NCBI GenBank assembly: GCA_029717555.1
Contig: JAMDHS010000025.1
Location: 62,001-126,000 of the forward strand
Length of the DNA: 64,000 nt
Reading direction: 5' to 3'
Origin: Peribolospora baueri
Lineage: Eukaryota
Made by a program: the position numbers and the translations under genes. Under the pieces are notes generated by a model. It was not told the DNA's origin and searched no databases. It was given only the letters and a program-made list of their open reading frames with translations. Below are positions 1,278 through 61,085 of this stretch, in pieces; the stretch's first letter is position 1, and the number at the start of each line of letters is the position of its first letter.

Positions 1278-3290
1278 TCAGCGGTCTGATGTGAGAAGAA
1301 GGAGAACCGGTTAGCACGTAAGGGTAAAGTACGGAACGTAAAGATCACTGATGGAATAAAACTCACAAAATTCGAGACTCTCGTCGCTTCTCTTCACCAC
1401 TTGCTTCCACGCCTCTTCAAAGTCCGCCGGCAGGATAACGTATCTATCGAGGACAAAAAAGACCAAGACGGCCGCATGAGACGGGAACAAGCGATCGCAA
1501 ACTCGTAGCCGTCAGCCGCGAAAGCTCACCTGTTCTTCCGGACCGCTGCAAAGGAGGGGCATTAAGTGACTTGTGGTGAGCAGGAATTCGTTCTGTTACG
1601 AGACAGAAAAACCGAAGTCGCATACCTTGGAGACCAGCCGCTTGACAGATGGACGCAATTTCTGCAGAGGAGAGCTTATCTGGTCTTGACACATCTGTCG
1701 GTGGAGAAAACATTGCGAGGTGAATTACGTATTCGGATGAAGCTGAGCGATGCCGGCGGGAGGAGGGTTCCTCACAGTCTTCGAGATCGACGTCCGGCGC
1801 AAGGTTCATCTTCCCGGTGATGGTCTGGAAGATGAGTCGCTTTTCACGGCGATTCGGGTTCGGGAATTCGATCTTGCGGTCCAATCGACCTGGACGGAGG
1901 AGGGCGGGGTCAAGCGTGTCCGCTCGATTGGTAGCCATGATGACCTGGGTGAACAGGACGGACAGGACGAACAAACGTTAAGTCGAACCGAGGTCTCTAC
2001 AGTCGCATGTCAAGTGGGTAACGAACGCAGAGGTGACAAGACAGACTTACCTTAACATTGGAACCCTGATCGAACCCGTCCATCTGGTTCAACAGCTCAA
2101 GCAAAATCCTCTGCACTTCCCTGTCTGCGCCTGTCTGTGCATCAAACCGCTTTGTGGCGATGGCGTCGATCTCGTCGATGAAGATGATCGATGGCGCGTT
2201 TTCGCGCGCCAGGCGGAAGACGTCGCGAACCATACGAGGGCCTTCACCGAGATACTTTTGCACGAACTCGGAGCCGACGACTCGAATGAAAGAGGCGGTC
2301 GTCGAGTTTGCCACCGCCTTGACAAGCATAGTCTTGCCGGTGCCGGGAGGGCCGTAGAGGAGAACGCCACGGGGAGGGTCAATGCCAATTTGCCTGTAGA
2401 GGTCAAACTGGGTAAGCGGCAGTTCGACGGCTTCACGAATTTCTTGTTTCTTTATGAAGAAAAGGAGACACGCGCGATTAGCCGTGTCGCTAGCGTGAGG
2501 TACCGATCGATCGCTCTTTCCATGCAGACATGCTTACCTGCACATCCAATCCTCCGACGTCGTTGTAGGTGACGTCTGGCTTTTCATCGGCTCCAACTGT
2601 TAAAAGAAAAAAATGAATGTGAGATAAGACGCCTCTGTGGCAATCCACGCGGGGGCGACTACGCACGCATGGAAATACTGGAATCGGCCTCTGGTGGGAG
2701 CACATCGACGAGCGAGTTGGAGTGGCGGTGAAGAGCAACGGAAGAGGAAGGCTTGAGGAGTTCTCGATCGATTGTGGAGAGGATGCGCACGACGTAGTTG
2801 GAGCCGGTGGTCGAACCGACGATGCCGGTATTCTGGTCGATGGGCTCGAGGAACTGGCCGATGACCAAGGGCACAGACTGGATGCGCTTCACCTCCTCCT
2901 GTGCGCGTACCAGCTCGCGTTTGAGATTACGCTGCTCGTCTTTCTGCAATCACCAGGGGGATGTCGAAAGGAGACCGCTGAGCTCCGCTCACGTATGATT
3001 AAGGCTTTGAGAGTCGCCAACTCACCACGTACTCCTCCATCGTGTTCAAGAACTCGAGATGTCGCTGGAGCTTCTTCAAGCGCAAGTACGTGTCCTCCTC
3101 TGCCTGCATCTCCTCTTAAAACACGACAGTAGGGGTGGAGGGCATGAGTGACGGCGACCAAGCCGGTCGGCCGAGCCGCCTTGCCCTATCGTCTTCCTCA
3201 GCATTACTCACGGTGGACGTTGACCTTTTCGGTCATGGCATCCTCGAGGGTTGGCTCATCCTTCTTGACGGAGATGCCTAGCTCGTCCAT
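1278..3290 (-). CDS. RPT3: 26S proteasome regulatory AAA ATPase subunit 6B (multi-exon)
   Basis: Exons give [82 protein letters not shown] and [29 protein letters not shown] at 3290 ([10 protein letters not shown]); last micro-exon ends FYR-TGA at 1278. Confidence 0.96.
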
Positions 3291-25702: not shown

Positions 25703-30563
<4,861 letters not shown>

Positions 30564-30849: not shown

Positions 30850-32208
30850 ATGGCCAGCTACAGTCTTTGCGTGTTGGGTGAGCTCTAGCTCTTTGGACAC
30901 GGACGAGAATGTCTAATTTAACCGCGCCAATTCCTCGCCCTCCGCCCTCGGTCAGGATGCGGCACGATGGGTATCGCCATACTGTCCGGCGTGCTGGACT
31001 CTCAAAAAGAGCTCACCCGCCGGACTTTGCAGTCGCAATCCACCGCAGACGGGACGGACACTCCGGTGTCGGTAGCTTCCTCTGACGAAGACCTGACCGG
31101 GCTCGCCGCCTTGCCGGGTCGCTTCATTGCTTGCGTTAACCGCCCCGAGAGCGGGCGCAAGCTCGCCAAGACGTTCGCTGGCGCGAGCCGCGTGGAGGTA
31201 TTGACGGCGCAGAACGTAAAGGGGGTCAGTGAGAGCGATGTCGTCTTGCTCTGGTGAGCCCCACATGTCTCCTTGCTTGGGGGGATTGTAAAGAAAAGCG
31301 GCCGGAGCCAACGACATTTGGCACTCATGCCCGCCGTCTTTCGACAGCTGCAAGCCGCAAATGTTCCAGTCAATCCTCAGTGAGGATGGCATGAAGTCCG
31401 CCCTCGAAGGCAAGCTTGTCATCAGCATCCTCGCCGGCGTGACCATCTCTCAGATTAAGGCCATCGTCCCCCCTAGCACCGTCGTCGTTCGAGCGATGCC
31501 TAACACTCCTTGCAAGGTGAGACCAGCGAATGCCCTCCCCTTTTCGTCTGCGGCCCGAGCAGGCCGCTGGTAAGGTATCGAAGACTTACAGGTTTGTTCA
31601 ATGATTACCCCTTTAGATCAGAGAAGGCATGACCGTTCTCACTCCTCCGCCGTCCACGACGCCCTCCTTGCCCGCGACTCTGCCGCCTCTACGCTCCCTT
31701 CTCCTCTCCATCTTCTCCTCCATTGGCCGCGCCCGGTTCCTCGACGAAAAACACTTTGACGCCTGTACGGCCCTCGCCGGATCCGGACCCGCCTTCGCCT
31801 GCGTCTTTCTCGAAGCCATGGCTGACGGCGGTGTCATGATGGGCCTTCCTCGCGCGGAGGCACTCGAACTCGCTGCGCAGAGCATGCAGGGCGCTGCGAG
31901 GATGGTCTTGCAGTCTGGAATGCACCCTGCCGCGTTGAAGGACAGCGTGACGAGTGAGTGCAGGAGCCTGTTCATCAGGCTCTGGTGGGCTTCGGTGGTC
32001 GTTAGCTCGCTGGCTCAGGCGCTGAGGAGAAATTCTTACTCGACACGCTCGCTGCCCCCTTCCTTGTCTCTTAGCCCCCGGCGGCTGCACCATCGCTGGC
32101 CTCCTCACGCTAGAGGACGGAAAGGTGCGTTCGACGGTCGCACGGACTATCCAAGCGGCCTCCCAACACGCAGCTGGACTGGGCCAGGTGCAGAGCGCGT
32201 CGAAATGA
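30850..32208 (+). CDS. PRO3: Pyrroline-5-carboxylate reductase
   Basis: LCVLGCGTMGIAIL, CKPQ, ISILAGVT, VRAMPNTP, FDACTALAGSGPAF, LKDSVTTPGGCTIAGLLTLEDG. Confidence 0.95.
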
Positions 32209-33837: not shown

Positions 33838-36800
33838 ATGCTGCGTCAGCTCGGTCTTCGAGCTTCTCGGCAGCTTGCCTCTCAGCGCACCGTCCACTTC
33901 GCCCCGGCCCGGACGCTGGCGACCCCGACGGCCCTCCCTCCGAAGGACTGCACCTCCATCACTCCGCCCTACGCTCGCCTGCTCTCCCAGCTCGATGTCG
34001 TGCGTTCCATTCTCAACCGACCTCTCACTCTCGCCGAAAAGATCCTTTATTCCCACCTCTGCAACCCCGAGGAGAGCCTCGCAGGTCCGGCAGCCAAGGG
34101 CGGCGTCAGGGGTCAGGCGTACCTCTTGCTCAACCCGGACAGGGTAGCCATGCAGGACGCCAGCGCTCAAATGGTGGGCTTGTCTTGTCTTTGTCAGCGC
34201 TCAGACCGACGCCTTTTGGAGAGGCTGTCCGCTGTCTGTCAACCGAAGCGATCTTTGTCTAATTCGTCTCTGTCTGGCGATCGTCCGTACAGGCCATCCT
34301 GCAATTCATGACCTGCGGCCTCGAACGCACCGCGGTTCCAACCTCCATTCACTGTGACCACCTGATCCAAGCCTATGAGGGCGCGGAAGCTGACCTCAAG
34401 CGCTCCATCGTGACCAACAAGGAGGTGTTTGACTTTTTGGAGAGTGCAGCGAGAAAGTACGGCATTGCGTTCCACGCTCCAGGAAGTGGCATCATTCACC
34501 AGATTGTGCTGGAGAACTACGCGGCGTGAGTGATCTCCCTCGCCGTTTCTCTTGTCTCGGCTCGTTCCAATTCCACTGACATCTTCTAATATCCTCGCCT
34601 CACTCGCTGCTAAACTTAGACCCGGTATGCTGATGCTCGGTACAGACTCTCACACTCCAAATGCTTCAGGTCTGGGCATGCTCGCCATTGGAGTCGGCGG
34701 CGCGGACGCGTGAGTCGAATAGAGACTGGTGTATGGTCGTCGGACGCCTTCAGCGCTCTCATATCCCCTCATTCTGCTGACCATAATGACGTCGTGCAGA
34801 GTCGACGCCATGACGGCCACGCCTTGGGAACTCAAGGCTCCTCTCGTCCAGCGTATCCACTTGTCCGGTCAACTCTCAGGCTGGGCCTCTCCCAAAGACA
34901 TCATCTTGCACCTCGCCGGTAAGCTCACCGTCCGCGGCGGCACGGGCTCCATTCTTGAATATTCCGGGCCCGGTCTCGAGAGCATTTCTGCTACCGGTTT
35001 GGCCACAATTGCCAACATGGGCGCCGAGGTGGGGGCGACGACAAGCGCCTTTGCCTACACTCCCAAGATGAGAGAGTACCTGGAGGCGACAAGGAGGGCA
35101 CCTGTCGCGCGCGCCGCTGACGAAGCTGCCGTCAAGGGCTTCCTCAAAGCGGACGAAGGAGCTGAGTACGACCAGAACATTGAAATTGTGAGTGTTTGCG
35201 CCATCGCCTTGCTTGAGCAGTTAACTACGGTTGCCGCATGTTCTGTTCGAAAAGCAGTTGACCCAACTCTTCGCATCGAACTTTTACATTCAGAACCTGT
35301 CCGAACTGGAGCCCCACTTGAACGGCCCTTTCACACCGGACCTCGCCACTCCCCTTTCCCAGTTCCGCGCCTTCGCGTCGACCAACTTCCCCAAGACGAC
35401 CGAGATCTCCGCCGCGCTGATCGGTTCTTGCACGAACTCATCGTACCACGACCTCTCTCGCTCCGCTGACATCGCGCGACAGGCAATCCAGAGAGGCTTG
35501 AAGGCAAAGACCAGCTTCATGGTCACGCCAGGGAGTGAGCAGGTGCGCGCGACCGTCGAGAGGGACGGCATTGAGGAAACTTTGACCGACGCCGGTGCTA
35601 CTGTGCTAGCCAACGCTTGTGGGCCATGCATTGGCCAGTGGGATCGACGGGAACTACAAGGAGAAGAGAACGGTGAGTGGACCCCATGGTTCATTGACGA
35701 CGTCGTCTCGTCTTCCGCCGTCGACGATGAACTTGACGCTCACGTCGGACCTTGGCTGGAATGCGAATAAAGTCATTCTCACGTCATTCAACCGCAACTT
35801 CAAGGCGCGGAATGATGGTAACGCTAAAACGATGTGAGTGCTTGGTTTACCGGTCGTCGGTCAGTCGGGAATCCGTGTAAGGGATGGATGGAGCATTGAC
35901 AGATCTGCCGATTGGTCGCAAAATTTTCAGGAACTTCCTCGCCTCTCCCGAGATCGTCACCGCGATGGCCTTCGCAGGTCGCGTCGACTTCAACCCGATG
36001 ACAGACTCCCTGCGTGCGCCAGATGGCACAGAGTTTCGATTCGAGCCTCCCAAGGGCGAGGAGCTCCCTTCTGCCCGAGGCGGCTTCGCCTTGGGCGACA
36101 CTTCCTACATGCCCGAGGCCACGCCGACTCCTCGTCCCGAGACGAAGATCGCCGTGGACTCCAAGAGCGACCGGTTGCGGTTGCTCGAGCCTTTCGAGGC
36201 ATGGGACGGCAAGGAGCCCACGGACCTGCCCATTCTCATCAAGGTTAAGGGCAAGTGCACCACAGATCACATCTCCGCCGCCGGACCTTGGCTAGCCTAC
36301 AAAGGCCACCTCCCCAACATTTCTCAAAATACGCTTATTGGAGCCACCAACGCGGCTAACAGCAAGGTCAACGAGGTGCAAAACGTCTTCACTGGAGAGT
36401 CGGGCTCAGTGCCGTCCGTGGCAGAGTACTACCGAGACCAGGCAAAGACCAAGTGGATCGTTATTGGCGACGACAAGTGAGTGGCTTTTATTCCTAGCCG
36501 TTGTCATACGTCGTGTTCGTTTCGCCGCCCAACAACCTCGCATCATAATACTGGAATAATCCTTCCCGTTGTCCTCTTTGCCTTCCTCCCTTGCAGCTAC
36601 GGTGAAGGCAGCGCTAGGGAACACGCAGCCCTTCAACCAAGATACCTCGGGTGTGAGTCATGGAATTTCCACTGGCGGGCATTTTCGCGCCGGCCCTTCA
36701 CGTTTGCTCACTCTCACCATGCTTGTCTTGAACTCGTTTCCATTTTTGTCATGGATTGTCCGTCGTCCAGTCGTTTGAATGGCCTTCTCTCCACTCGTCT

Positions 36801-37837
36801 CTGATAGGTCAGGCAACCTCGCGGGCTAACTAACCGTTTTCTTTCGAACATTCTTGCCGCCCTCCAGCGGTTTCGCGATCGTTGTGAAGTCGTTTGCCCG
36901 CATCCACGAGGTAAGGGTACCTACCTATTGCACAATATAGATGCTAGATCGAATGTTGAGTCTTGCTATTGCGCCCGATGTCACCACAGACTAATCTCAA
37001 GAAACAGGCGAGTTCTAGGCGATCCCCGCCCTTAGCATGGCGAGGACTCGCTTTTTTCGGAAGAAGTTTTGAAGCTGAACGGTCTGATCTCTTTCGGTTT
37101 GACATAATTTCAGGGCGTGCTCCCGTTGAGCTTTTCGAATCCTTCGGATTACGAACGGGTGGGTTCCGATGACAGCCAAGACGCAGAGACGGATCTGGCT
37201 CGGGCCCATCGGGAACGAGTCGCGTTTCATGTTTGGTCCCCTTTTCCGATCTTGACCCACCCCTTCTCCCTTCGTCTGACTGGATGGTCGTGCCTTACCA
37301 ATGCCAACAGGTTCAGCCCGAAGATAGGGTCTCGCTCAAAGGGATCAAGGAGCTCGCGCCCGGAAGCAAGGTTACCATGGTCGCCAAGCACAAGGACGGT
37401 GAGTTATCGACCTTTGCCAGTGCGAGATTTGCGTCACGCGTTTTCTTGTGCCTGGTTCGTTCCGTGGGTGATATGGAGACCCAGGAGCCCCAAATACCAT
37501 GCTGAATCTGCGTTCCTCCTATCCCCGCACATACTTTTCTCTGCTTCCTCTTTCTACTCCACCACACCCGTCTCTAGGCTCGGTTGACGAGATCCCGCTC
37601 TCGCACACCATGACTTCTGGCCAACGTGCGTTCCGCCTCTTTTTCGTCTCTTCCCTCTCGTCCGCAGATGTTGCGTCGTTGTTGAATCGAAGCTGACTTG
37701 CGATCACTCCTCCGGGTTCGGCGCCCCTGCCCCCTTCCCTCGCATCCTGCTTTCTGCTCTTCTCCTGCGATGCAGTCGAATGGTTCCGCGCAGGCTCAGC
37801 GCTCAACGCCATGGGTGTGAAGGCCAAGTCCGCTTAA
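33838..37837 (+). CDS. ACO2: Mitochondrial aconitase-family enzyme, Aco2/AcoB type (putative homocitrate dehydratase), about 13 introns
   Basis: Mitochondrial-type presequence, [73 protein letters not shown] (Aco2-like rather than Aco1 QDATAQ/YRGHL), SFARIHETNLKKQG. Confidence 0.9.
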
Positions 37838-42146: not shown

Positions 42147-45100
42147 ATGGACATGCCACCTCTCCCCACCTCCTCGCCCTTCGGTGCCATCCCTCCCTAC
42201 ACCCGCGCTCACGCCGCCGCCAGCGTCGCTGATAATCACGTACCCGCCGTCTCCTCGCCCTCTTATAGACCGTCGTCCTTCAGCACACCTCCCGGCTCTT
42301 CTCGGGGCCACTCCGCCTCCCACTCCGCCTCTTCCTCTCATCTTCACTTCATCGCCTCCTTAAGTTCACCACCCGATCCCGGCCCCTCCGTCCACCCCTA
42401 CCATCCCCATCCTCCGCCTCTGCCCCTTGCCATCCCCGTCACCTCCGCCCCTGCTGCCTCTGTCTCTACTCCCACGTACAGACGCCCCTCCTCACCCCCC
42501 GACCTCCGCGACACCATCTCCACTTCCGACCTCCTCAGCCAGATTCTCGCCCAGAGGCTCGTCTCCAAGAACGGAGGAGACACACTCGACCTGTGCCACA
42601 AGAGGATCGAGGACGTCCCCCTGGAGATGGTGGAGATGGTTCGCGACGAGGTCGTGCGGTGAGCACACGCGGGGTGCCCGAGGTGATTTTGGTCCGTCCT
42701 GCTCACCGGCACATGATCTGCTCTGCCCCCGCGGGCCGAACAGACTCGCCATCGGTTACAACCTCGTGTGGCGCTTGCCCGACGAGTTCGCCCAGCTGAC
42801 CAAGCTCAGATACCTGAACATTCGTGCCAACATGATCACTGTCTTCCCCACTGTGGTGAGTGTGTCACAGTCGTACCGTTTTGTGTGCCTAGAGGGCGGT
42901 GACCACTGACCTTCCTTGTTCCACTCGTCCATCGCCCGTCCTCACAGATTACAGAGTTGCCCTCGCTCGAGATTCTCGACATCAGCAGGAACAAGATTAG
43001 GAAGCTCCCCAGCGAGTGTGGCAATCTCGTGAATCTCAGAGTGAGCCCCCCTCCTTCATGCCTCCTCCACACCTGCGCCTGCTCTTCCTCACCGATCACC
43101 CATGCTCTCATCCGTTTTCCTAGGTGCTATCCATTGCCAATAACAAGCTCCGCCGCCTTCCAGTATACATCCCTCAGATGCACAACCTCCGCATCCTCAA
43201 AATCGATCAGAACCCCATTGAGTGGCCTCCCCACGACATCCTCGCCCCCGCCAGCGCCTTTTCCAAGACTCGCGATCCCGCCGGCGGCAAGCATCGGCTG
43301 AATGATAAGAAGATGCAGGAGTGGATCATGAGCTTGAAGGACTGGATTGCCGAGAACGCCGGTGAGTTGGAGAGCTGTTGCCGGCTGTTCGTTGGGAGCC
43401 TGTCGTTCCACGACGCCGAATGTGGTGTTTCTGTGTCTAGTGAATCTCATTCTGGCAATGTCGCTCAACTCCAGGCGAGCGCAAGGTCCACCACAAGTAT
43501 GCGAGGAGCACGCCGGCGGTGCCGGGCACGGAAAGTGACGACGAGCTAATGACCGAGAACGAGCAGTCGTTCGTGACCAGAGGCAGCCTGTCAGCCCCGC
43601 CCTCTCCGCCGTTGCCGACTAGCGAGTCCCTGAACCACCACCGTCCTGGAGGGATGCGGAGGGAGCTCTACATGACAGCCGAGCCGGACGCAAGCCCGCC
43701 TTTCCCCCCTCCCCCCATCAACACGTTGGCCGCTACTGCCGCTCACGACACTCACGACGTACCGCAAGCCCCGGCGTCGGCCCCGCTCTCTCCACCGGAG
43801 CAGATCGCCGACCTGCCCACCATCACTCCTCCGCGCTCCGCTTTCGTTGTCCGGGGCTCCCACGGGCGCAACAAGTCTACGTCCACGCTCAGCAAAGCTT
43901 CGGCCGCTCGTCCGGACCTCAAGTCGAAAAAGTCTCTCCCCGACCTCCGCCAGAGTCACGCGGACATCCTCTCTGATCGACAGGCGAGCCTGCGCGACCG
44001 TGGCCCGGACCTCCCTTTTCCCGCCTCTCCGCAGCTTCCACAGGGTGGAGGTCCCTTGTCGGCGTCGGCGTCGTCGTCGTTGTCGCGGCCGCCCCGGAGG
44101 CCACCCACTCCTCCGCCGGGGGTGCGAAGGGCGCAACACCGTCAGCCATCTTCTTCGTCCATGCCTGACAGGGCCCGACAGAGGAGTTTGTCCGGCTCGA
44201 GTCAGTCGCAGGCGGCCAACGAGGCCGTGCCCGCGGCCGCCGTCGCCACCTCACGGGAAGCGTCCCTCTTACGAGACGACTCGATGGGTACCTCCGATCT
44301 GGAAGCGTCCTTCTCCTCGGATGTGCTCACCGAGACGCCCCGCAAGGAGAAGCCGCTCTTCCGACCGGAGAGGAAGGACAGCTCGGGTCCCGTGGATGTG
44401 GAGCGCAACAGCTATTTCCGAAGACTCTCCACACTTCCACCGTCAACCATCTCCAAGGCGATCCCCGTGCCGGTGCTCAAATTTATCGACGCCACCCGCG
44501 GCGTTCTCTTCGCCCTCTCCCAGATCTACACCGCCCTCAAGCAATACATCCTCCTCGTCACAGACGACAGGGTCACCTCGCTCTTCAACCGCATCCTCGA
44601 CGGCGCAAGTGGCGTCATGGGCACATTCATCAACGCCCTCGACCGCTTCGACTCTCTCTCCCGCCGGGGCACGCCCGAGCCGGACGTCATCCGCGGTGTC
44701 CTGGGCGCGTGTAGGGATAACGTGAGCACGTTCAAAAAGTTGGTGAGCGTGCTCCAGCTGCAGCTCAAGACGCTTGCCGGTAGCGCGGACGTGAGGTATA
44801 CGCGCACCTTACTCCTCATGCTCTACGGCTCCACCGCCGAGATCTCCAACTCATGGCAGGCGATGACCCCGCTGGTCGAAGCCGTCTTGCCTTTCCTCGC
44901 CGTTGCCCGTACCACCCACCCTTCGTCCGCTAGCGCTTCTAACCCTCCTCTGTCCGCTACTCCGACCTCGCACGCTCCTTCCTCTTCTTCGACCCCCAAC
45001 AGTAAGCCCGCGAATTCTCTGCCCTCCATCGCCGAGGGTGCGGGGAATCGATCGGAGAGCGAAGGTCTGGCCGCCGTCGGAGGCCTGAACAGCGCGGCCG

Positions 45101-46225
45101 TGACGGCCACCGCGCAGCGGCTCGCTCGGACCCGACGCAACGCTGGCTCGTTCAGCGTGCAGGACGTCAAGATCGGCGCCTCCTTGCCTCCTTCCGCTGC
45201 CGCCTCTCAGGTTTCCTTCGCCCTCGAAGATCTCCAGTCGCCGCCACACCCGCCACAACACCAACCACAGCCACAACTGCAGTACCAACACCAGCAGGAA
45301 TCGTCCCCCTCCTCTCCCGCCCAAGGTTCGAGCGTCCCACCTTGGATGCCGAACGCGAACGTGAGCGGTCCTGGCCCGGCGACTGCGCCTTCGTCCTCGA
45401 TCTACTCCAGCCCGCCCCGGACGGCGGTGCCGACGAGGAACGGGTCGGACTCGCCTCACGCGCTCATGCCCATCGGCGGTCCTAGCCCCGGCCCCGCCCC
45501 TGGCTCCGGTGCCAGTGCCATGTTGGCTGGCATGGGACTCGGTCCAGGGGCGATCGCGATGGGCCCCGGTCCCGGAAGCGGCGGGTCTCATCTGGTCGTC
45601 GACGACGACCTTCTCAGCTTGGTGGACGAGGCGACGAATGTGGCCTTTGGCGTTTGGAACGCCTTGCTCGACAATCTCGGAAGTGGCGGCGGAGCAGGCG
45701 GCGGTGGGACTGGGGCAGAACCATCGGCCGGGGGCGCGGCCGGGGGAGGAGGAGGAGGAGCGAGCGAAGGTGCGCTGGCGGCGGGGAACAAGAAGCTGCG
45801 GGACCTGCGAGAGCTGAGCATGAGCGCGAGCGACTTGACCAGACGCCTTCAGAGCACGCTCGTCAAGGTGCGAGGTCAAATTGAGGAGGGGATGGGGATG
45901 GTGGCGAGGTCTCATGGCGGCTCGCGCGGATTCGCCAATGCCGAGCTCAAGCGCCTTTGGGACGAGGTGAACGCTTTCGCAAAGGTGAGTGGCCGGTACC
46001 GGGGAGTCGCAGTCATGGTCTGTGCTCTATTGTCGGCCCGCAATTCGCTCACTTCCCTCCCCTCCCTTATTTGTCCCTCTTTCAAAGGTCGTCATCCAAA
46101 TCTCCACCCTGGTCAAATCCGTCGCCCTCGAGCACTCCTTCCCCCGTCCCCTGCTCCACTTGCTCGGCGACTTGACGTCGAAGACGGCAGAGGTGACCGT
46201 CATCATGTACGCTAGCATTAATTGA
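42147..46225 (+). CDS. SOG2: RAM signalling network leucine-rich-repeat protein
   Basis: N-terminal LRRs (TLDLCHKRIEDVP, LRYLNIRAN, LEILDISRNKI, LKIDQNPIEWPP) followed by SOG2-domain motifs RNSYFRRLSTLP, RGVLFALSQIY, DVRYTRTLLLMLYGSTAEISNSW. Confidence 0.9.
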
Positions 46226-49513: not shown

Positions 49514-51340
<1,827 letters not shown>

Positions 51341-52794: not shown

Positions 52795-55245
52795 TCATTT
52801 CTTCGCCTCCCTCCCGCCGCTTTCTGTCCCTCCTTCCCCTTCCCGCTCCGGGGGCAAGTCCAACAAATGCCCCATCTTCTCCACTTTGGTTCTCAAATAC
52901 TTTTCCAGCTCCGGGCCCCTCGTGACGCTGCCTCCGAGCATCGTTGCACCGGCGCGTCGGAGGAGGTGTGAGATGTAGGAGGTGTGAGAGGCTGAGGAAG
53001 AGTCGCTCTCGAAGGAAGAAGAGGCGGAGTCGGAGCCAGAATCGGAATAGGAATCGGACGAGCCCGGTGCGGTGATGGCAGAGACATGCGCACCGTCCTC
53101 TTCGTCCTCGTCTTCTGAGCCTTGTTGACTCTGGACAGAGACGGGGGTGGACTCGTCTTGCCGCAGAAGCTCGTCGAGGAGACGGTTCTTGGATGTGGAG
53201 GACTGGAGTCTGTTTGACCGGTCGCGATGGCGGTGGTGGCCAGGGGAAACAGAAGAAGAGGAGAGCTCCTCGGCGCTGTTGACCATCCCATTGTCGACCA
53301 TGCCCTTCTTGCGTCTGCCCTCCTTCCTGCCTTCCGCAGCTTCTTCCTCCGCTTTGCTCCTCCTTCGCTCTTTCTTCTCCTTCCTCACCTTCTTCTTCTT
53401 CTTCTTCTTCCTCTCGCCAGAGTGGTGCACGCCGCACCTCCAGGCCCTTGGCACCATCCCGACCCTTTGTCTGACTACGACGCCCTCGCTCTCCAACGCC
53501 TCCATCTTCTCCGGGTTATTCGTCAAAAGCCTACACTCCTCCACGCCGAGATCACGGAGGATCTCGGCGGCGACGTCGTACCGACGCGCGTCTGGAAGGT
53601 GGCCAAGGAGGATGTTGGCGGCGACGGTGTCATGGCCCATGTCCTGGAGGTTGTAGGCCATGATCTTGTCTAGGAGGCCTATGCCACGACCTTCTTGACG
53701 GAGATAAACGACCACACCTCGAGGGAAGTGACGACGGGACGACGAAGATGAAGACGAAGGGGGAGGCGTGCTGATGAGACGGATCGCCTCGTCGAGCTGC
53801 TCCCCACAATCGCATCGCTGGGATCCGATCGTCTCGCCGGTGTAGCACTCGGAATGAATGCGCACGAGCGGAGCTGGCGGCCCTTCCTCTTTTTCGTCCT
53901 CCATGGCATGGTGGGAGGAAGACGGCGCCTGCGGCTTGGAAGCACTGATGCTGTTCGGACCGAGCCTGCCGACGTAAGCGCCCCTTACAATCCTTTCCAT
54001 CTCCGTCTCTCCCTCCCACACCTCGTCGAGTGTCTTGCTCCTCAACAGCGCGTGCCGCTTGCCCACCGCGTCCCCGTTCGCTCTCCCTTGACCTTCACCT
54101 CCATTCTCGACGATAGCTTGGGCGGGGTCGACGACGAGCGCGAGGTGCTCCTTGTCGTCGCGGTTGTTCTTGTAGATATGCAGGAAAACCTCGCCGTGCG
54201 GGGTTGGGATCCGCGTCCGTGCATGACAGCGCACCTTCAAAGGCTCCGCAGGTTCCCTTCCTCTCGCCGCCGCCTTGGCTCGAGCGGCGGTCGCGGCGGG
54301 AGTGGGAGGTAGCACATGAGGGCTGATAGGTGTACTCGGTCCGCCGCCGCCATCGGCCAGCGCGCGATCAGGTTGCGCGGCTGAGCGTCCCAGGGATGCG
54401 TACATCTTGGCGAGCGCGGCCTCCCTTTCCCTGTCAAATGCGATGCGCTCCTTCCGTCTCTTCTCCTCGTCCTCCTTCCTAAGCTCCTCCTGCTGCGCGC
54501 GCTTAGCCGCCTCGGCACGAAGGCGCTCGTAATACTCCCTTTCCTCCTTCTCGCGCTGCAGACGGATGTGCCGAGGTGCCTGACGAGACGCATACAGCTC
54601 GCGCGGCTGCGTCACGGTCGGTGCGGTGGACAGACCAAGCAAGTCGCCGGAGGGGCCTCGGCCGCGGCCGTCGAGCTGAGAAGGGAGGGCCGCTGTGAGC
54701 TCCGGCTGGGCAGGATGCTCAGAATCGCAAGAGGAGTAGGCCGACTGGTGCGAATACCGTCGTTTCTCTGTCACCGCCGCTGCCGGCCGCTGCTCCGCGG
54801 GCAGAGGGCCGGTGGTAGCAGGCGGTGGCGGCAGAGGGGGGAGGACGACATCGACGGTCGGTCTGGCGCCGCCCTCTCCGCCGGCGCCACCTCCAAACTG
54901 GTGATGAAAATGGTGCCGAGTGACGTGGGGGCCGGAGCTGAGGCTGGCAGCCAGGACGATTGGGTCGAGGGGAGGTCGTCTGAGCGCGGAGAGCGTTGCG
55001 AGCGGGCGGCTCTTGCGTCGGGCCTGCTGGGATTGACGGGTGTGCGAAAGGGGAGACATGAGGGGCGAGGGGTGAAGATGGAGATGGGGTCCGGAAGCGG
55101 GCGAAGGGTGTGAGTGAGGGAATGTGGACGGCATGGAGCAGAGGAGGTCGAGGAGCTCGAGGTCCGATGCGGTGGGTTGGGAATGGTGGTGGCCATGAGG
55201 AGTGCCGGCCTGGGCTGGGCGGGATGCGAAGGCGGCGGAGGACAT
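52795..55245 (-). CDS. RIB1: GTP cyclohydrolase II, single-exon, with long N-terminal extension and insertions
   Basis: [79 protein letters not shown] within an 816-aa ORF. Confidence 0.93.
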
Positions 55246-55319
55246 GGTGTGGGGTGTGGGGGATGGAGGGAGTGGAAGGAGGGCAGCAAGCTGGCGGGGT
55301 CTGTTGAGGTTGTGGACGA

Positions 55320-55391
55320 CGTATATAAGGATATCCGACCTGATCTGACCTGGCTTGACCTCACCGGACCTGACCCGGCCTGACTGGACCT
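55320..55391 (-). promoter_or_regulatory. TATA-like element and degenerate GACCT/AGGTC pentamer array upstream of RIB1
   Basis: TATATAAG at 55322-55329, about 80 bp upstream of the RIB1 ATG, flanked by about 10 degenerate GACCT units at 55337-55391. Confidence 0.35.
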
Positions 55392-55885
55392 CGGCAGGCG
55401 GGGCGACGTCGTGTGGCCGGAGACGTGCGGAGGAGCTGCGGCAAGAAGACTCGATGGCTCTCGGCGCTTTGCCGGGCCGGTGCGAGGTGGTGAGACGTGG
55501 AGGAGACGTAAAGGATGGCGAAGAGGAGAGCGAGGTGACGACGACGACGACGACGACGGCGACGACTATGACAACGAGCAGGTCCTGAAGAAGGAGAGCT
55601 TCGTCGCTGCTCTCGACTTCATCCGCTCTTGATTCCTCCCTTCCATGTCCTTCCTTCCCTCCGCCTCGCTCTCTCCTTCTCGGCCGAACACCCGGCCGCC
55701 CGGGATGGTGGAAGCAGGTTGCCGCAGCACGGGACGATCACGTGCGAGATCGTGACGACCGCAGTCATTTCAGAAAGAAACCCAGTCCGCGCGGGGGACG
55801 GACGGGAAGGGGGAGGAGGGAAGGGAAGGGAGGTATAGAGAGAATCAGCGAAGACGGCCGCGTCCATCCCATCTCCACACCGAAC

Positions 55886-58176: not shown

Positions 58177-61085
58177 TCACCACAGCCAGCCACCCTTCTT
58201 GCGGATCACCAGTTCGGTCGGCCCGTTCTTTTCTTCCACGTCCTTCCATAACAGTTCCCGTGTCCTGCCGAGGCTTTCGATCGCCTTTGGGAGCACCGAA
58301 CGCGAACCGAACCGAACGAGGTTGAGTAAGGATAAAAGCCATTCACCTGGTCAGAATGTGCGAGCCACGGAGTGGCTAGAGCGTGCCGGCCGAGCAAGGG
58401 CAGACTCACCGCGACACGATCCATGACACGTTCAAGCTTGTCCGCGAAGCCGTCCTGCTCAGAGATCTTCCTGAACACTCGCAGGAGGACCGTGTTCTCT
58501 GCACTGACTTCGTGGAACGAATTGATGTGAATGGCATTGATCTGCAATGGTGGAATGGAGGTGGCAGTGCGGAAAAAAGTTTATGAAGTGAGTAACGGCG
58601 AATCGGAGCGAGCGACATGGACGAATCTATCAGGGCACTATGAAGGCGGCCATGATAGGGATCGGAAGGAAAGACAAACTAACGTGATCCAATTCGCCGA
58701 TGTAGTCCGGCCTTGTCATAATCTGCCGAACCTCTCCCCACGGGATCTTGGGCTCGACGAGGACCTTCGTGGCCGCCTCTTCTCCCATCTCTTCTGCAAT
58801 CTTCTTTTCTCCTTCTGCTTGTCTTCGAGCCAACTCGGAGAAGAGAAGCCAGGAACATGTGGACCATTTCTGCTCGTCCATGACGTCTATGCGCCAAAAA
58901 AGGCCATAGAGAACAAAGGTAAAAACGTTATGGTGAGACTGGGTGGACGATGGAACGCTGAGATGAGGATGGAAGCAACGACGCACCGTCGTCGTGGTCT
59001 TCGATGATGGATGTCTTGGACAGAATCCAAGCCTCCTCGTCCCTGACCTTGTGCTGACAGGCGACTGTGAGGTAAGAGCGATGGACGAAAATGCCTTTCA
59101 GCCCTTTTTCACGGGGCGAGTAAACCCGCGCTACAATGAAAGGAACGGGGCTTTGGCACTCACGGAGCATATCAGGCTTCCGAGCCGCCATGTTGATCAG
59201 ATTCAGGCGGCCACCGACAATCTGGTAGATTTGATTGAATTGCTCGTCCGTCACGGCTTCGGCTGCCTCATCGCCCCAATACTGTCGCCTGCATTCTCGC
59301 AGGGCGTGGAAGGCTTGTTCACGGTTGAGATTGTTGAACGTTATGCTGGGGGACAAGAGGATATGATGGGTGAATCGACGGCCGGCGCGCTTTGCCTGAT
59401 GCCTCGTCTCTGCCAAAGACACTCCTCACACGTCCATTCGACTGGCGGTTTTGCCTTGTCACGCCACGGGGACAAGAATAGCGCCCTCCAGCAACGGTAA
59501 GCCAGTTCGTCCGAGTACAGCATACTGTAGATCTTCGTTTGACTCACGACACCGATCATAAACCCAGTAGTCGTCCGTGGTGATCACGAAAGTAGCCGCG
59601 CCTGCGCTGGCCCACGCCTCTGCACGCTGCTGGAAGAGCGTGAGCAAGCGCCAGCCGTCCTCGTCGTTTGGAAGGAGGTGAGCGGCGTTCATCACGATCA
59701 CCACGGGCTTCCTGCGGGTTTGATACATCTCCAGGACGGCCTGTTTCGCAGAGGGCCAGCATGAGCAAAGCATAGCCGGTCGAGCCATGAGATGAAGGAA
59801 GGCCTGGACGCTTTCCGCCCTCTCCTTGCTCACTTTCTCAAGCTTGTGCAACGCCCTCTCCAAGCACTGGTTCGGCAACATGTTGGACAGATCCGAGAGG
59901 CCAAGTAGGTTGCCCAGATAGTCGCGATTATTGGTGAAGTTGATGGCTTCACTGAAGCGGTCGATGGTGACCGCTGGGTCCGGATGGCAGTCGAAATATG
60001 CGACGCCTATGTTAGTGGGCGAGAAGAGCGGGGGAGGACACGGTGCCAGTGCCTGTCAGCACAAGTTATAAAGATCCTAAGCGCAAGATTGGACAGAGCT
60101 CAAACCGACCATCTGCATCAATCCCCTTCATCGCATCGAGCAGCATGGTGGCTTTCCCCTGGCCCTGTTCAGGGCATGACGCTCTATCATATCAGCACGA
60201 ATACCGAGCACGGTCTCAGGTCTACCTCTGAGAGAACCCCACCTTGGTGCCCATGATCAAGTAGTAGTGTCCTCCCATTTTTCCTTGCAAGATTTCGTCA
60301 ACCAACTTGCGCTCCGGTCGGTCCACGAGGTCGACGTGGGCGAGATGAGCACCACTGTTGAGCAAGGCCAAGCAAGGGTCGTTGCCTGGCTGGAAGGCGA
60401 TCTTCATCTTGCGCTGCACGTCCCATTTGTACCATTTCACATAGGCAGTGCCGGCAAACTGGAGGGGAGAGACCATTTGGGACGAAGAAAGAATGAAAAT
60501 TGTGAAGGAAGCGAAAACAGACAGACGCTGTCGAGGAGGGAGGGTGATCAGGGTGCAGAGAGAAGACTACCGTAGACTCACACCAAGTAACACGATGCCT
60601 AAGCTTGTCCCCAACGCCGTCTCCGCCGCCGTACTATTGAAGAACCCGGACCGCTCCCTTTTCTCTCCCGCCCCACCACGCTCATGGCTCGGCCCTCCTC
60701 CTCCTTCTCCTCCTCCTCCACCGCCGGCACCACAGCCACCTCTGGTACGAGCGGCAGAAGCCTGAAGGTCGCCTCCATCCGACGTTTCCCTGATTACCTG
60801 CTCCGACGCTGCATGCTGCTGCGCGACGACATTGCCCGTATTCTCCGGCCGAGCTACCTTGGACGCCACGGGCTCGTGAGGATATGAGGGCCCAGAGGGA
60901 GAGTGGGACGGGCTTCCAAACGATGAAGAGGCGGGCGAGGGTCTTGAGAGGTGGAAAGGGCGAATGGGCCGCCTCAGTGCGGTGGTCGGGTAAACAGGAG
61001 CGGAGTGAGCGGTCGTCCTCGCAATTCCTAGTGATGAAATGGAAGCTCGAATGAGAGACGAAGTCGAAGCCCTGGTGGTCGCCAT
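58177..61085 (-). CDS. Mitochondrial-targeted membrane-anchored P-loop NTPase (AAA-like) of unknown function, multi-exon
   Basis: Arg/Ser-rich presequence, transmembrane ALGTSLGIVLL, YYLIMGTK|GQGKATMLLDAM Walker A-like motif, LERALHKLEKV, QQRAEAWA, VGGRL, last exon AIESLGRTRELLWKD..W-TGA. Confidence 0.75.

Follow-up and report, generated by a model that had tools for sequence, protein, structure and literature searches.

Among the described systems closest to the locus considered here is the [D2,3] spliceosomal twin intron (stwintron) of the biotin gene bioDA, known from Sordariomycetes and Botryosphaeriales according to the cited part of that report (Flipphi et al., PMC5639578); the initial annotation of this DNA, which proposed a further candidate of the same type, described stwintrons as coming mainly from ascomycetes, in agreement with this literature. 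A second group of relevant findings concerns the choice of 5' splice sites. At the tandem donor of STAT3, splice-site choice is, in the sections cited, independent of the exact position at which U1 binds (PMC11162779), and use of a 5' splice site is rescued by an engineered U1 that binds downstream of it (PMC4822034); as these sources present them, such findings indicate that the cleavage site and the U1 position can be uncoupled. Intron 8 of an aconitase gene in the window (the whole 64,000-nt stretch analysed) can be compared with both, as the donor demanded by its reading frame is overlapped by a consensus donor two bases further on. Judged from its sequence, this intron is, on a modest balance of probability, an ordinary U2-type intron with a weak donor, GTGTGA, that would be removed in a single step.

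The gene runs on the plus strand from 33838 to 37837 (ATG at 33838, stop at 37837 in the gene model) and comprises 14 exons and 13 introns encoding a predicted 796 aa. Its identification as an aconitase in the initial annotation was borne out by a match of exon 7 to a PDB aconitase (E 5.5e-55) and by the alignment of 5/5 aconitase homologues, from each of which spliced alignment derived the identical 13 introns, 36651-36867 among them. The encoded protein is 60-62% identical to basidiomycete aconitases, which are 74-91% identical to one another, and the attribution of the DNA to a basidiomycete-like host is judged right; in protein searches, which used single-exon queries, the closest proteins reached ~63% identity at best. 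A metagenome scan with exon 7 returned two related loci, both intronless and 49% identical. On this sequence comparison, the gene is a divergent paralogue of mitochondrial-type aconitase, and a modest inefficiency of splicing may therefore be tolerated.

Exon 8 (36597..36650, 54 nt) ends two bases into a Gly codon, and exon 9 (36868..36910, 43 nt) opens with the rest of that split codon; the gene model and the spliced alignment agree on both. Between them lies intron 8 (36651..36867, 217 nt, phase 2), and the conserved reading frame is restored by joining 36650|36868, as had been claimed, so that the mature junction is fixed by conservation of the protein sequence. The 5' end of the intron reads GTGTGAGT, in which the frame-required donor GTGTGA (register A, 36651..36656) is overlapped by GTGAGT (register B, 36653..36658), which was put forward as donor for the inner intron; a GT is thus followed directly by a complete canonical inner donor (36651-36658). 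Given the 2-nt spacing of the two GTs, the second donor site is out of frame, and the 36652|36868 join reads ...PRYLGSVSRSL*, a frameshift with a stop after 6 further codons, in accordance with the earlier expectation that GTGAGT paired with the distal acceptor would shift the frame. AG dinucleotides inside intron 8 end at 36657, 36770, 36807, and 36812, and none of these is a frame-restoring partner for the GTGAGT at 36653. The remaining layout is likewise as first described: excision of 36653-36770 (118 nt), ending in the proposed inner acceptor CAG (36768..36770), leaves GT joined to TCGT (36771..36774), which would make the external donor GTTCGT, and a 99-nt remainder with its own tandem branch-point motif, GCTAAC/CTAAC (36825..36834, A at 36833), and the distal acceptor CAG (36865..36867), which spliced alignment identifies as that of the mature mRNA.

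Comparison was made with the homology-verified introns of the window, 36 in all, namely intron 8 and 35 others, the spliced alignments having covered four genes (with 8 homologues for PEX1). Left out were the PEX1 intron 29824-29756, which is supported by 5/8 homologues and has a donor without G at +5 that is overlapped by a GTGAGT 4 nt upstream, and variable PEX1 calls near 27750, 26290, 26130, and 30850-30900. Intron 8 is the longest of the 36, followed by introns of 179, 152, and 150 nt, the median being ~103 (32 introns counted). Scored with a position weight matrix that spans -3 to +8 and was built from introns of the window, GTGTGA reaches 4.30 bits, just below the weakest of the 35 other donors (4.64), and the rebuilt GTTCGT reaches 2.09, whereas GTGAGT, the commonest verified donor (13/31 other introns counted), scores 8.43 and beats the frame-required site by about 4 bits. 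GTGTGA retains G1, T2, G3, and G5; its T at +4 occurs in 3/35 verified donors and its A at +6 in 1/35, while T at +3, as in GTTCGT, occurs in 0/35. A better-scoring GT near the used donor is found in 0/35 other verified introns, the used donor being the local best in 35/35, and intron 8 departs from this pattern; the oddity of its donor is real. The octamer GTGTRAGT is not enriched in the window (4 seen vs 2.18 expected, a count reached by 16/100 shuffles). The 10-mer of the intron 8 donor recurs on the minus strand at 60574-60583, where it appears by ORF and codon-usage logic to be cut at GTGAGT, a reading short of proof because an alternative start codon exists there.

At the distal 3' end, the signals are typical of the window, with an acceptor of 5.46 bits (real median 5.29) and a branch site (ACTAAC) scoring 6.28 whose A lies 34 nt before the end of the intron. 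Intron 8 agrees with ordinary U2-type GT-AG introns in having a GT donor with G at +5 and a branch motif that falls 10-55 nt from a YAG, and its length, though the maximum of the 36, is counted as within the range of the organism. The proposed inner acceptor scores 0.37 bits, a value so low in only 9% of real acceptors and equalled or exceeded by 70% of 44 decoy AGs, and it looks like a decoy AG. No YTRAY branch motif is present in the inner part (36653-36770), where the published model places a DYTRAY element 4-20 nt before the HAG; the best branch-point-like site, TCTCACC (36712..36718, A at 36716), scores 5.74 against a real median of 5.37 and lies 54 nt before the AG at 36770, at the edge of the range of real branch distances (10-55, median 31).

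The frequency of such a layout by chance was assessed by shuffling the interior of the intron 5000 times with dinucleotides preserved; 12% of these shuffles have an internal HAG with NNGT after it and neither part shorter than 42 nt. Given the same head, 2/35 other real introns show this layout as well. The AG-free run of 110 nt from the inner donor to 36770 is matched in 11% of shuffles, and is equally unusual under the one-step and stwintron readings. Copies of intron 8 that would mark it as a repeated or mobile intron are absent within the window, a 17-nt imperfect repeat (36761-36777 / 36880-36896) considered as an internal duplication is matched by 11.6% of shuffles, and no site-pairing RNA structure or terminal stem was found in the intron, the fold of which is less stable than those of shuffles (z = +1.60). 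Two further candidates were rejected. The AGs at 36807 and 36812, taken as inner acceptors, would rebuild GTGTCA and GTGCAA, donors without G at +5 that reach just -2.65 and -2.16 bits, respectively, and recursive splicing at AG|GTCAGG (36807/36808) works only from the weak register and would leave a second intron of 60 nt, shorter than all 36.

The favoured explanation, removal in one step, envisages a single reaction that takes the GT at 36651 as donor and the CAG ending at 36867 as acceptor and proceeds via the strong CTAAC branch site (36826-36834): U1 would be recruited to this run rich in GT, perhaps in register with GTGAGT, the cleavage position would be set later, at the upstream GT, and some transcripts would probably be cut at GTGAGT and, being frameshifted, be lost. 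The conserved mature junction, the typical distal 3' end, a direct donor that scores above the rebuilt one and has bases at +4 and +6 that recur among verified donors, the published uncoupling of cleavage site and U1 position (PMC11162779, PMC4822034), and the appearance of the nested layout in 12% of shuffles support it; against it stand the overlapping GTGAGT, a competitor 4 bits higher with a counterpart in 0/35 other introns, the minus-strand 10-mer apparently cut at GTGAGT, and a length of 217 nt, about twice the median, where each putative half, at 118 or 99 nt, would be unremarkable in length. Two-step removal as a [D2,3] stwintron, in which the inner intron (36653-36770, branch near 36716) would leave first, create GTTCGT, and permit excision of the 99-nt external intron through CTAAC and the CAG at 36867, is a live minority hypothesis, rated unlikely, against which the sequence tests lean. 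A perfect donor nested at this point is just the element that such an architecture requires, and nested splicing would explain why a strong GTGAGT does not ruin the aconitase gene; the halves are of typical length in an intron that is the longest of 36, no AG intervenes between the inner donor and 36770, and the CTCAC-type branch candidate exceeds the real median. Published work, in the portions cited, also lends it precedent, for GTTCGT is among the 24 donor hexamers of a search tool from which GTGTGA is absent (PMC9024468), the nearest sites are held to pair by intron definition (PMC6616335), and bioDA provides an example of the [D2,3] type (PMC5639578). Nevertheless, its inner acceptor is decoy-like, its inner part lacks YTRAY and offers a branch candidate 54 nt away where 4-20 nt is given in the published account (PMC9024468) and 31 is the median here, and its external donor falls below all 35 verified donors as well as below the direct donor. 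Moreover, the two obligatory reactions that define a stwintron in the cited part of the bioDA report (PMC5639578) are not demanded by the sequence of this intron, in which the external donor need not await inner removal because GTGTGA keeps G1, T2, and G5 and, unspliced, already outscores the rebuilt site. Chance occurrence of the layout (12%) and of the AG-free run (11%), together with the lack of sister copies in the window and of a terminal stem (z = +1.6), also weighs against nested splicing. GTGTGA acting as a weak ordinary donor, which the initial annotation had itself offered as a caveat, is accordingly more likely than the stwintron it proposed.

The unusual donor might, alternatively, reflect splicing that is mostly unproductive, with GTGAGT at 36653 as the main donor for the CAG at 36867 and the resulting frameshifted, early-stop mRNA degraded or useless; enzyme would then come only from the minority of transcripts that are cut at 36651, and the paralogue would be leaky or down-tuned. 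The advantage of ~4 bits of GTGAGT over GTGTGA, together with a distal 3' end that is the strongest available, fits this account, as does the low identity of the paralogue (60-62%, vs 74-91% among basidiomycete aconitases), which suggests that constraint may be relaxed; direct use of the distal sites, with a frameshift, is also documented, in the passages cited, as an occasional error in the splicing of stwintrons (PMC9024468). Nonetheless, the gene has kept its 12 remaining introns, its frame of 796 codons, and its conserved motifs intact, which argues for selection on a functional product, and we regard mostly unproductive splicing as rather unlikely. It is quite improbable, in turn, that the extra GT stands outside the working gene, whether through 2 bp added to GTGT by an assembly or sequencing error or through a recent real insertion. 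With one GT deleted, the whole 5' end would be ordinary and the intron a plain one of 215 nt with the junction CGG|GTGAGT, and none of the other 35 introns shows the oddity; yet the spliced alignments of four genes called for no frameshift in the conserved regions, and the assembly accordingly looks clean. Two-base insertions are, in addition, rare errors.

Either of the two splicing routes would be of wider interest. If ordinary, intron 8 would be a clean natural case in which cleavage by the spliceosome falls 2 nt upstream of a perfect donor motif, and would bear on the selection of a cleavage site independently of the best U1 match. Should it prove, against expectation, to be a working basidiomycete [D2,3] stwintron, it would by the literature searched be the first stwintron reported outside Ascomycota, extending nested spliceosomal introns to Basidiomycota and adding a second [D2,3] case beside bioDA; its GTTCGT and inner 3' signals would lie far from consensus, and nested splicing would serve to neutralise an out-of-frame consensus donor.

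The resemblance to bioDA is close at the level of layout, as both introns begin with a GT and then a full consensus donor, and the possible inner intron of intron 8 ends in CAG and gives on removal a donor of the form G1-T2-N-N-G5-T6. The differences are that in a true stwintron the external donor arises only after inner removal, whereas in intron 8 GTGTGA outscores the rebuilt donor, and that the putative inner part of intron 8 has a poor branch site and a poor acceptor and lies in a basidiomycete. With the [D1,2] stwintrons of Hypoxylaceae and Xylariaceae (Fekete et al., PMC9024468, PMC12403724), as the cited parts of those reports portray them, intron 8 shares the idea of a nested donor and a frameshift upon use of the distal sites alone; those introns are split after G1, the present layout after T2, and many of them are sequence-similar copies with near-terminal inverted repeats, whereas intron 8 has neither copies in the window nor a terminal stem. 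Tandem or overlapping 5' splice sites are a further parallel; the well-studied cases, from animals, lie 3 nt apart and in frame, in contrast to the 2-nt spacing and out-of-frame second site of intron 8. In STAT3 exon 21, as described in the cited sections, two GTs likewise lie a few bases apart, one of them far closer to consensus, and the cut site need not match the U1 register (PMC11162779).

The intron under study (intron 8; 36651-36867, plus strand, 217 nt, phase 2) lies in a plus-strand gene for an aconitase of mitochondrial type, for which a hand-built model runs from an ATG at 33838 to a stop at 37837, with 13 introns separating 14 exons that encode 796 aa; exon 7 alone matches the pig and bovine aconitase structures (E 5.5e-55). 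Cross-checking with a custom spliced protein-to-DNA aligner, whose sole splice-site requirement was GT/GC...AG, gave the identical 13 introns, 36651-36867 among them, from all five homologues. Joining 36650 to 36868 yields the aconitase protein without a gap, whereas joining 36652 to 36868 reads ...PRYLGSVSRSL and then a stop, and every coordinate in the initial annotation is thereby confirmed. That annotation had placed the intron in an aconitase frame requiring 36651-36867, with GT-GTGAGT at its head, a frameshift if GTGAGT (36653) is paired with the distal acceptor, a CAG ending at 36770 whose use as an inner acceptor leaves GT+TCGT and an outer part of 99 nt, and a GCTAAC at 36825. In the sequence this branch motif reads GCTAAC/CTAAC (36825-36834), and the distal acceptor CAG occupies 36865-36867. 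Further downstream, an 18-nt micro-exon (36990-37007, plus strand, encoding TNLKKQ) and a GC-AG intron (37008-37113, plus strand, donor GCGAGT) were recovered in all five homologue alignments, GCGAGT at 37008 being the sole GC donor among 36 verified introns.

The proteins most like exon 7 come from basidiomycetes, namely the aconitases of Ustilago tritici, Thecaphora frezii, Pseudozyma flocculosa, Cystobasidium and Laccaria, which are about 62-63% identical to it, and the neighbouring proteasome ATPase RPT3 is about 90% identical to that of Ustilago bromivora and Thecaphora frezii. The probable basidiomycete host named in the initial annotation is upheld by these relatives, and probable membership of Ustilaginomycotina is a fair call. 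As the full-length enzyme shares 60-62% identity with a basidiomycete aconitase set whose members share 74-91%, it counts by this measure as a divergent paralogue and not as the usual orthologue; it is about as far from a Mucor enzyme as from the basidiomycete set, and may act in the TCA cycle, the lysine pathway or elsewhere.

The signals of intron 8 were judged against introns of the same window with junctions set by homology: 13 from the aconitase gene; 8 from RPT3 (1368-3290, minus strand, 8 introns), on all of which five of six homologues agree, the other moving a single intron by 4 nt; 11 from PEX1 (25706-30560, minus strand, at least 12 introns), each with 5 to 8 of 8 homologues, ambiguous ones being left out; and 4 from a gene for a protein kinase whose kinase domain is C-terminal (49700-51330, plus strand), with support from 5 to 8 of 8 homologues. 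Excluded from the statistics was an ambiguous PEX1 call (29756-29828, minus strand), where GTGAGT at 29828 overlaps GTAAAC at 29824; five of eight homologues pick GTAAAC, and two pick GTGAGT with a different acceptor. The window also encodes a SOG2/RAM-pathway protein (43444-46212, plus strand) and a long GTP cyclohydrolase II protein (52798-55737, minus strand), together with DnaJ, P5C reductase, Gar1/Naf1 and TRAPP-related ORFs. The resulting 36 verified introns (35 without intron 8) span 66-217 nt (median about 103 nt for the 32 counted), and intron 8 is the longest. Three of the 36 end in AAG instead of YAG (aconitase intron 5, 35770-35772, plus strand; RPT3, 3115-3117 and 2450-2452, minus strand). 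The 35 other donors carry G (28) or A (7) at +3, A (26), C (3), G (3) or T (3) at +4, G without exception at +5, and T (24), C (8), G (2) or A (1) at +6.

A weight matrix spanning -3 to +8 gives the frame-required donor CGG|GTGTGA 4.30 bits, the overlapping GGT|GTGAGT 8.43 bits, and the donor rebuilt by removal of the inner intron, CGG|GTTCGT, 2.09 bits; the 35 verified donors range from 4.64 to 12.29 bits, such that excision in one step or in two needs a donor weaker than every verified one. The 5' end is a genuine oddity, since none of the 35 other introns has any GT within 8 nt that outscores the donor in use. The octamer GTGTGAGT (10-mer GGTGTGAGTC) recurs at 60574-60583 on the minus strand, where it stands at the start of what is probably a 123-nt intron in a gene for a fungal AAA protein (60459-60583). 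The ORF upstream, which opens with a presequence-like MATTRAS..., extends exactly to the second GT, that of GTGAGT, and this GT alone joins it to a coding-like frame downstream (codon usage +0.23 versus -0.49 and -0.37 per codon). This copy thus seems to be cut at GTGAGT, a control that is no more than suggestive, because the intron would be non-coding if translation began instead at the alternative start codon, 60476.

The initial annotation had proposed a [D2,3] spliceosomal twin intron (stwintron), with an inner intron (36653-36770, 118 nt) nested between bases 2 and 3 of the external donor and excised first. In favour of this reading, which we consider unlikely, are the perfect nested donor, the apparent cut at GTGAGT in the 60574-60583 copy (suggestive only), a total length about twice the median that divides into ordinary parts of 118 and 99 nt, and the lack of any AG after the inner donor until the one ending at 36770. 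That lack is just as improbable for a plain 118-nt intron, and 11% of shuffles reach an AG-free run of the same length. By itself the layout, defined as an inner HAG with NNGT directly after it and neither part shorter than 42 nt, carries no evidential weight: it arises in 12% of 5000 dinucleotide-preserving interior shuffles, in 37% when G at +5 is the sole requirement, and in 2 of the 35 other real introns given the head of intron 8. On a 23-position matrix the inner acceptor scores 0.37 bits; among real acceptors, scored leave-one-out, just 9% are as low, and of 44 internal decoy AGs 70% equal or exceed it. YTRAY is absent from the inner part, as from 10 of 33 introns examined; a learned branch motif picks TCTCACC there (score 5.74), its A lying 54 nt from the AG, close to the limit of the real range (10-55). 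The published motif model for stwintrons, as set out in section 2.1 of its source, places DYTRAY 4-20 nt before HAG (PMC9024468), and the putative inner intron fails it. The list of 24 accepted donor hexamers in the same source includes GTTCGT and lacks GTGTGA (PMC9024468), but T at +3 occurs in none of the organism's 35 verified donors. According to the Background of one report, the external intron of a stwintron becomes functional only once the internal one has been excised (PMC5639578); GTGTGA keeps G1, T2, G3, and G5, so this defining dependence is not seen on sequence grounds. Searches found no copies of intron 8 within the window, no significant internal repeats and no stabilising RNA fold of the intron. 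An imperfect 17-nt direct repeat (14/17 identical, common AGTCGTTTG) links the inner acceptor region (36761-36777) to exon 9 (36880-36896, both plus strand); it is probably due to chance, as 11.6% of shuffles reach its score.

Somewhat better than even, in our estimation, is excision in one step from the weak first GT at 36651, although the stronger GTGAGT lies 2 nt downstream, probably with partial loss to that out-of-frame donor. The distal acceptor scores 5.46 bits, where real ones have a median of 5.29. Two published results show that cleavage is not bound to the best U1 match: splice-site choice at a STAT3 tandem donor was independent of the exact U1 binding position (PMC11162779), and use of a 5' splice site was rescued by engineered U1 binding downstream of it (PMC4822034). 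Splicing that is for the most part unproductive, in a paralogue under relaxed constraint, is slightly less probable than two-step excision, and a 2-bp GT insertion, spurious or recent, is the least probable account of the unusual 5' end. These rankings are judgements rather than computed posteriors; against the overlapping-donor oddity and the length they weigh the low prior frequency of stwintrons, inner signals that fail or are weak, and the rate at which chance alone yields the layout.

Stwintron types other than [D1,2] are described as seldom met even in ascomycetes (PMC12403724, in the part cited), and basidiomycetes appear, in the cited parts of two further reports, only as lineages without the stwintron (PMC5639578) or without the gene (PMC6616335). 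As an ordinary intron, intron 8 would be known biology, notable for its odd tandem donor; as a stwintron, it would bring a known kind of element to a new phylum.
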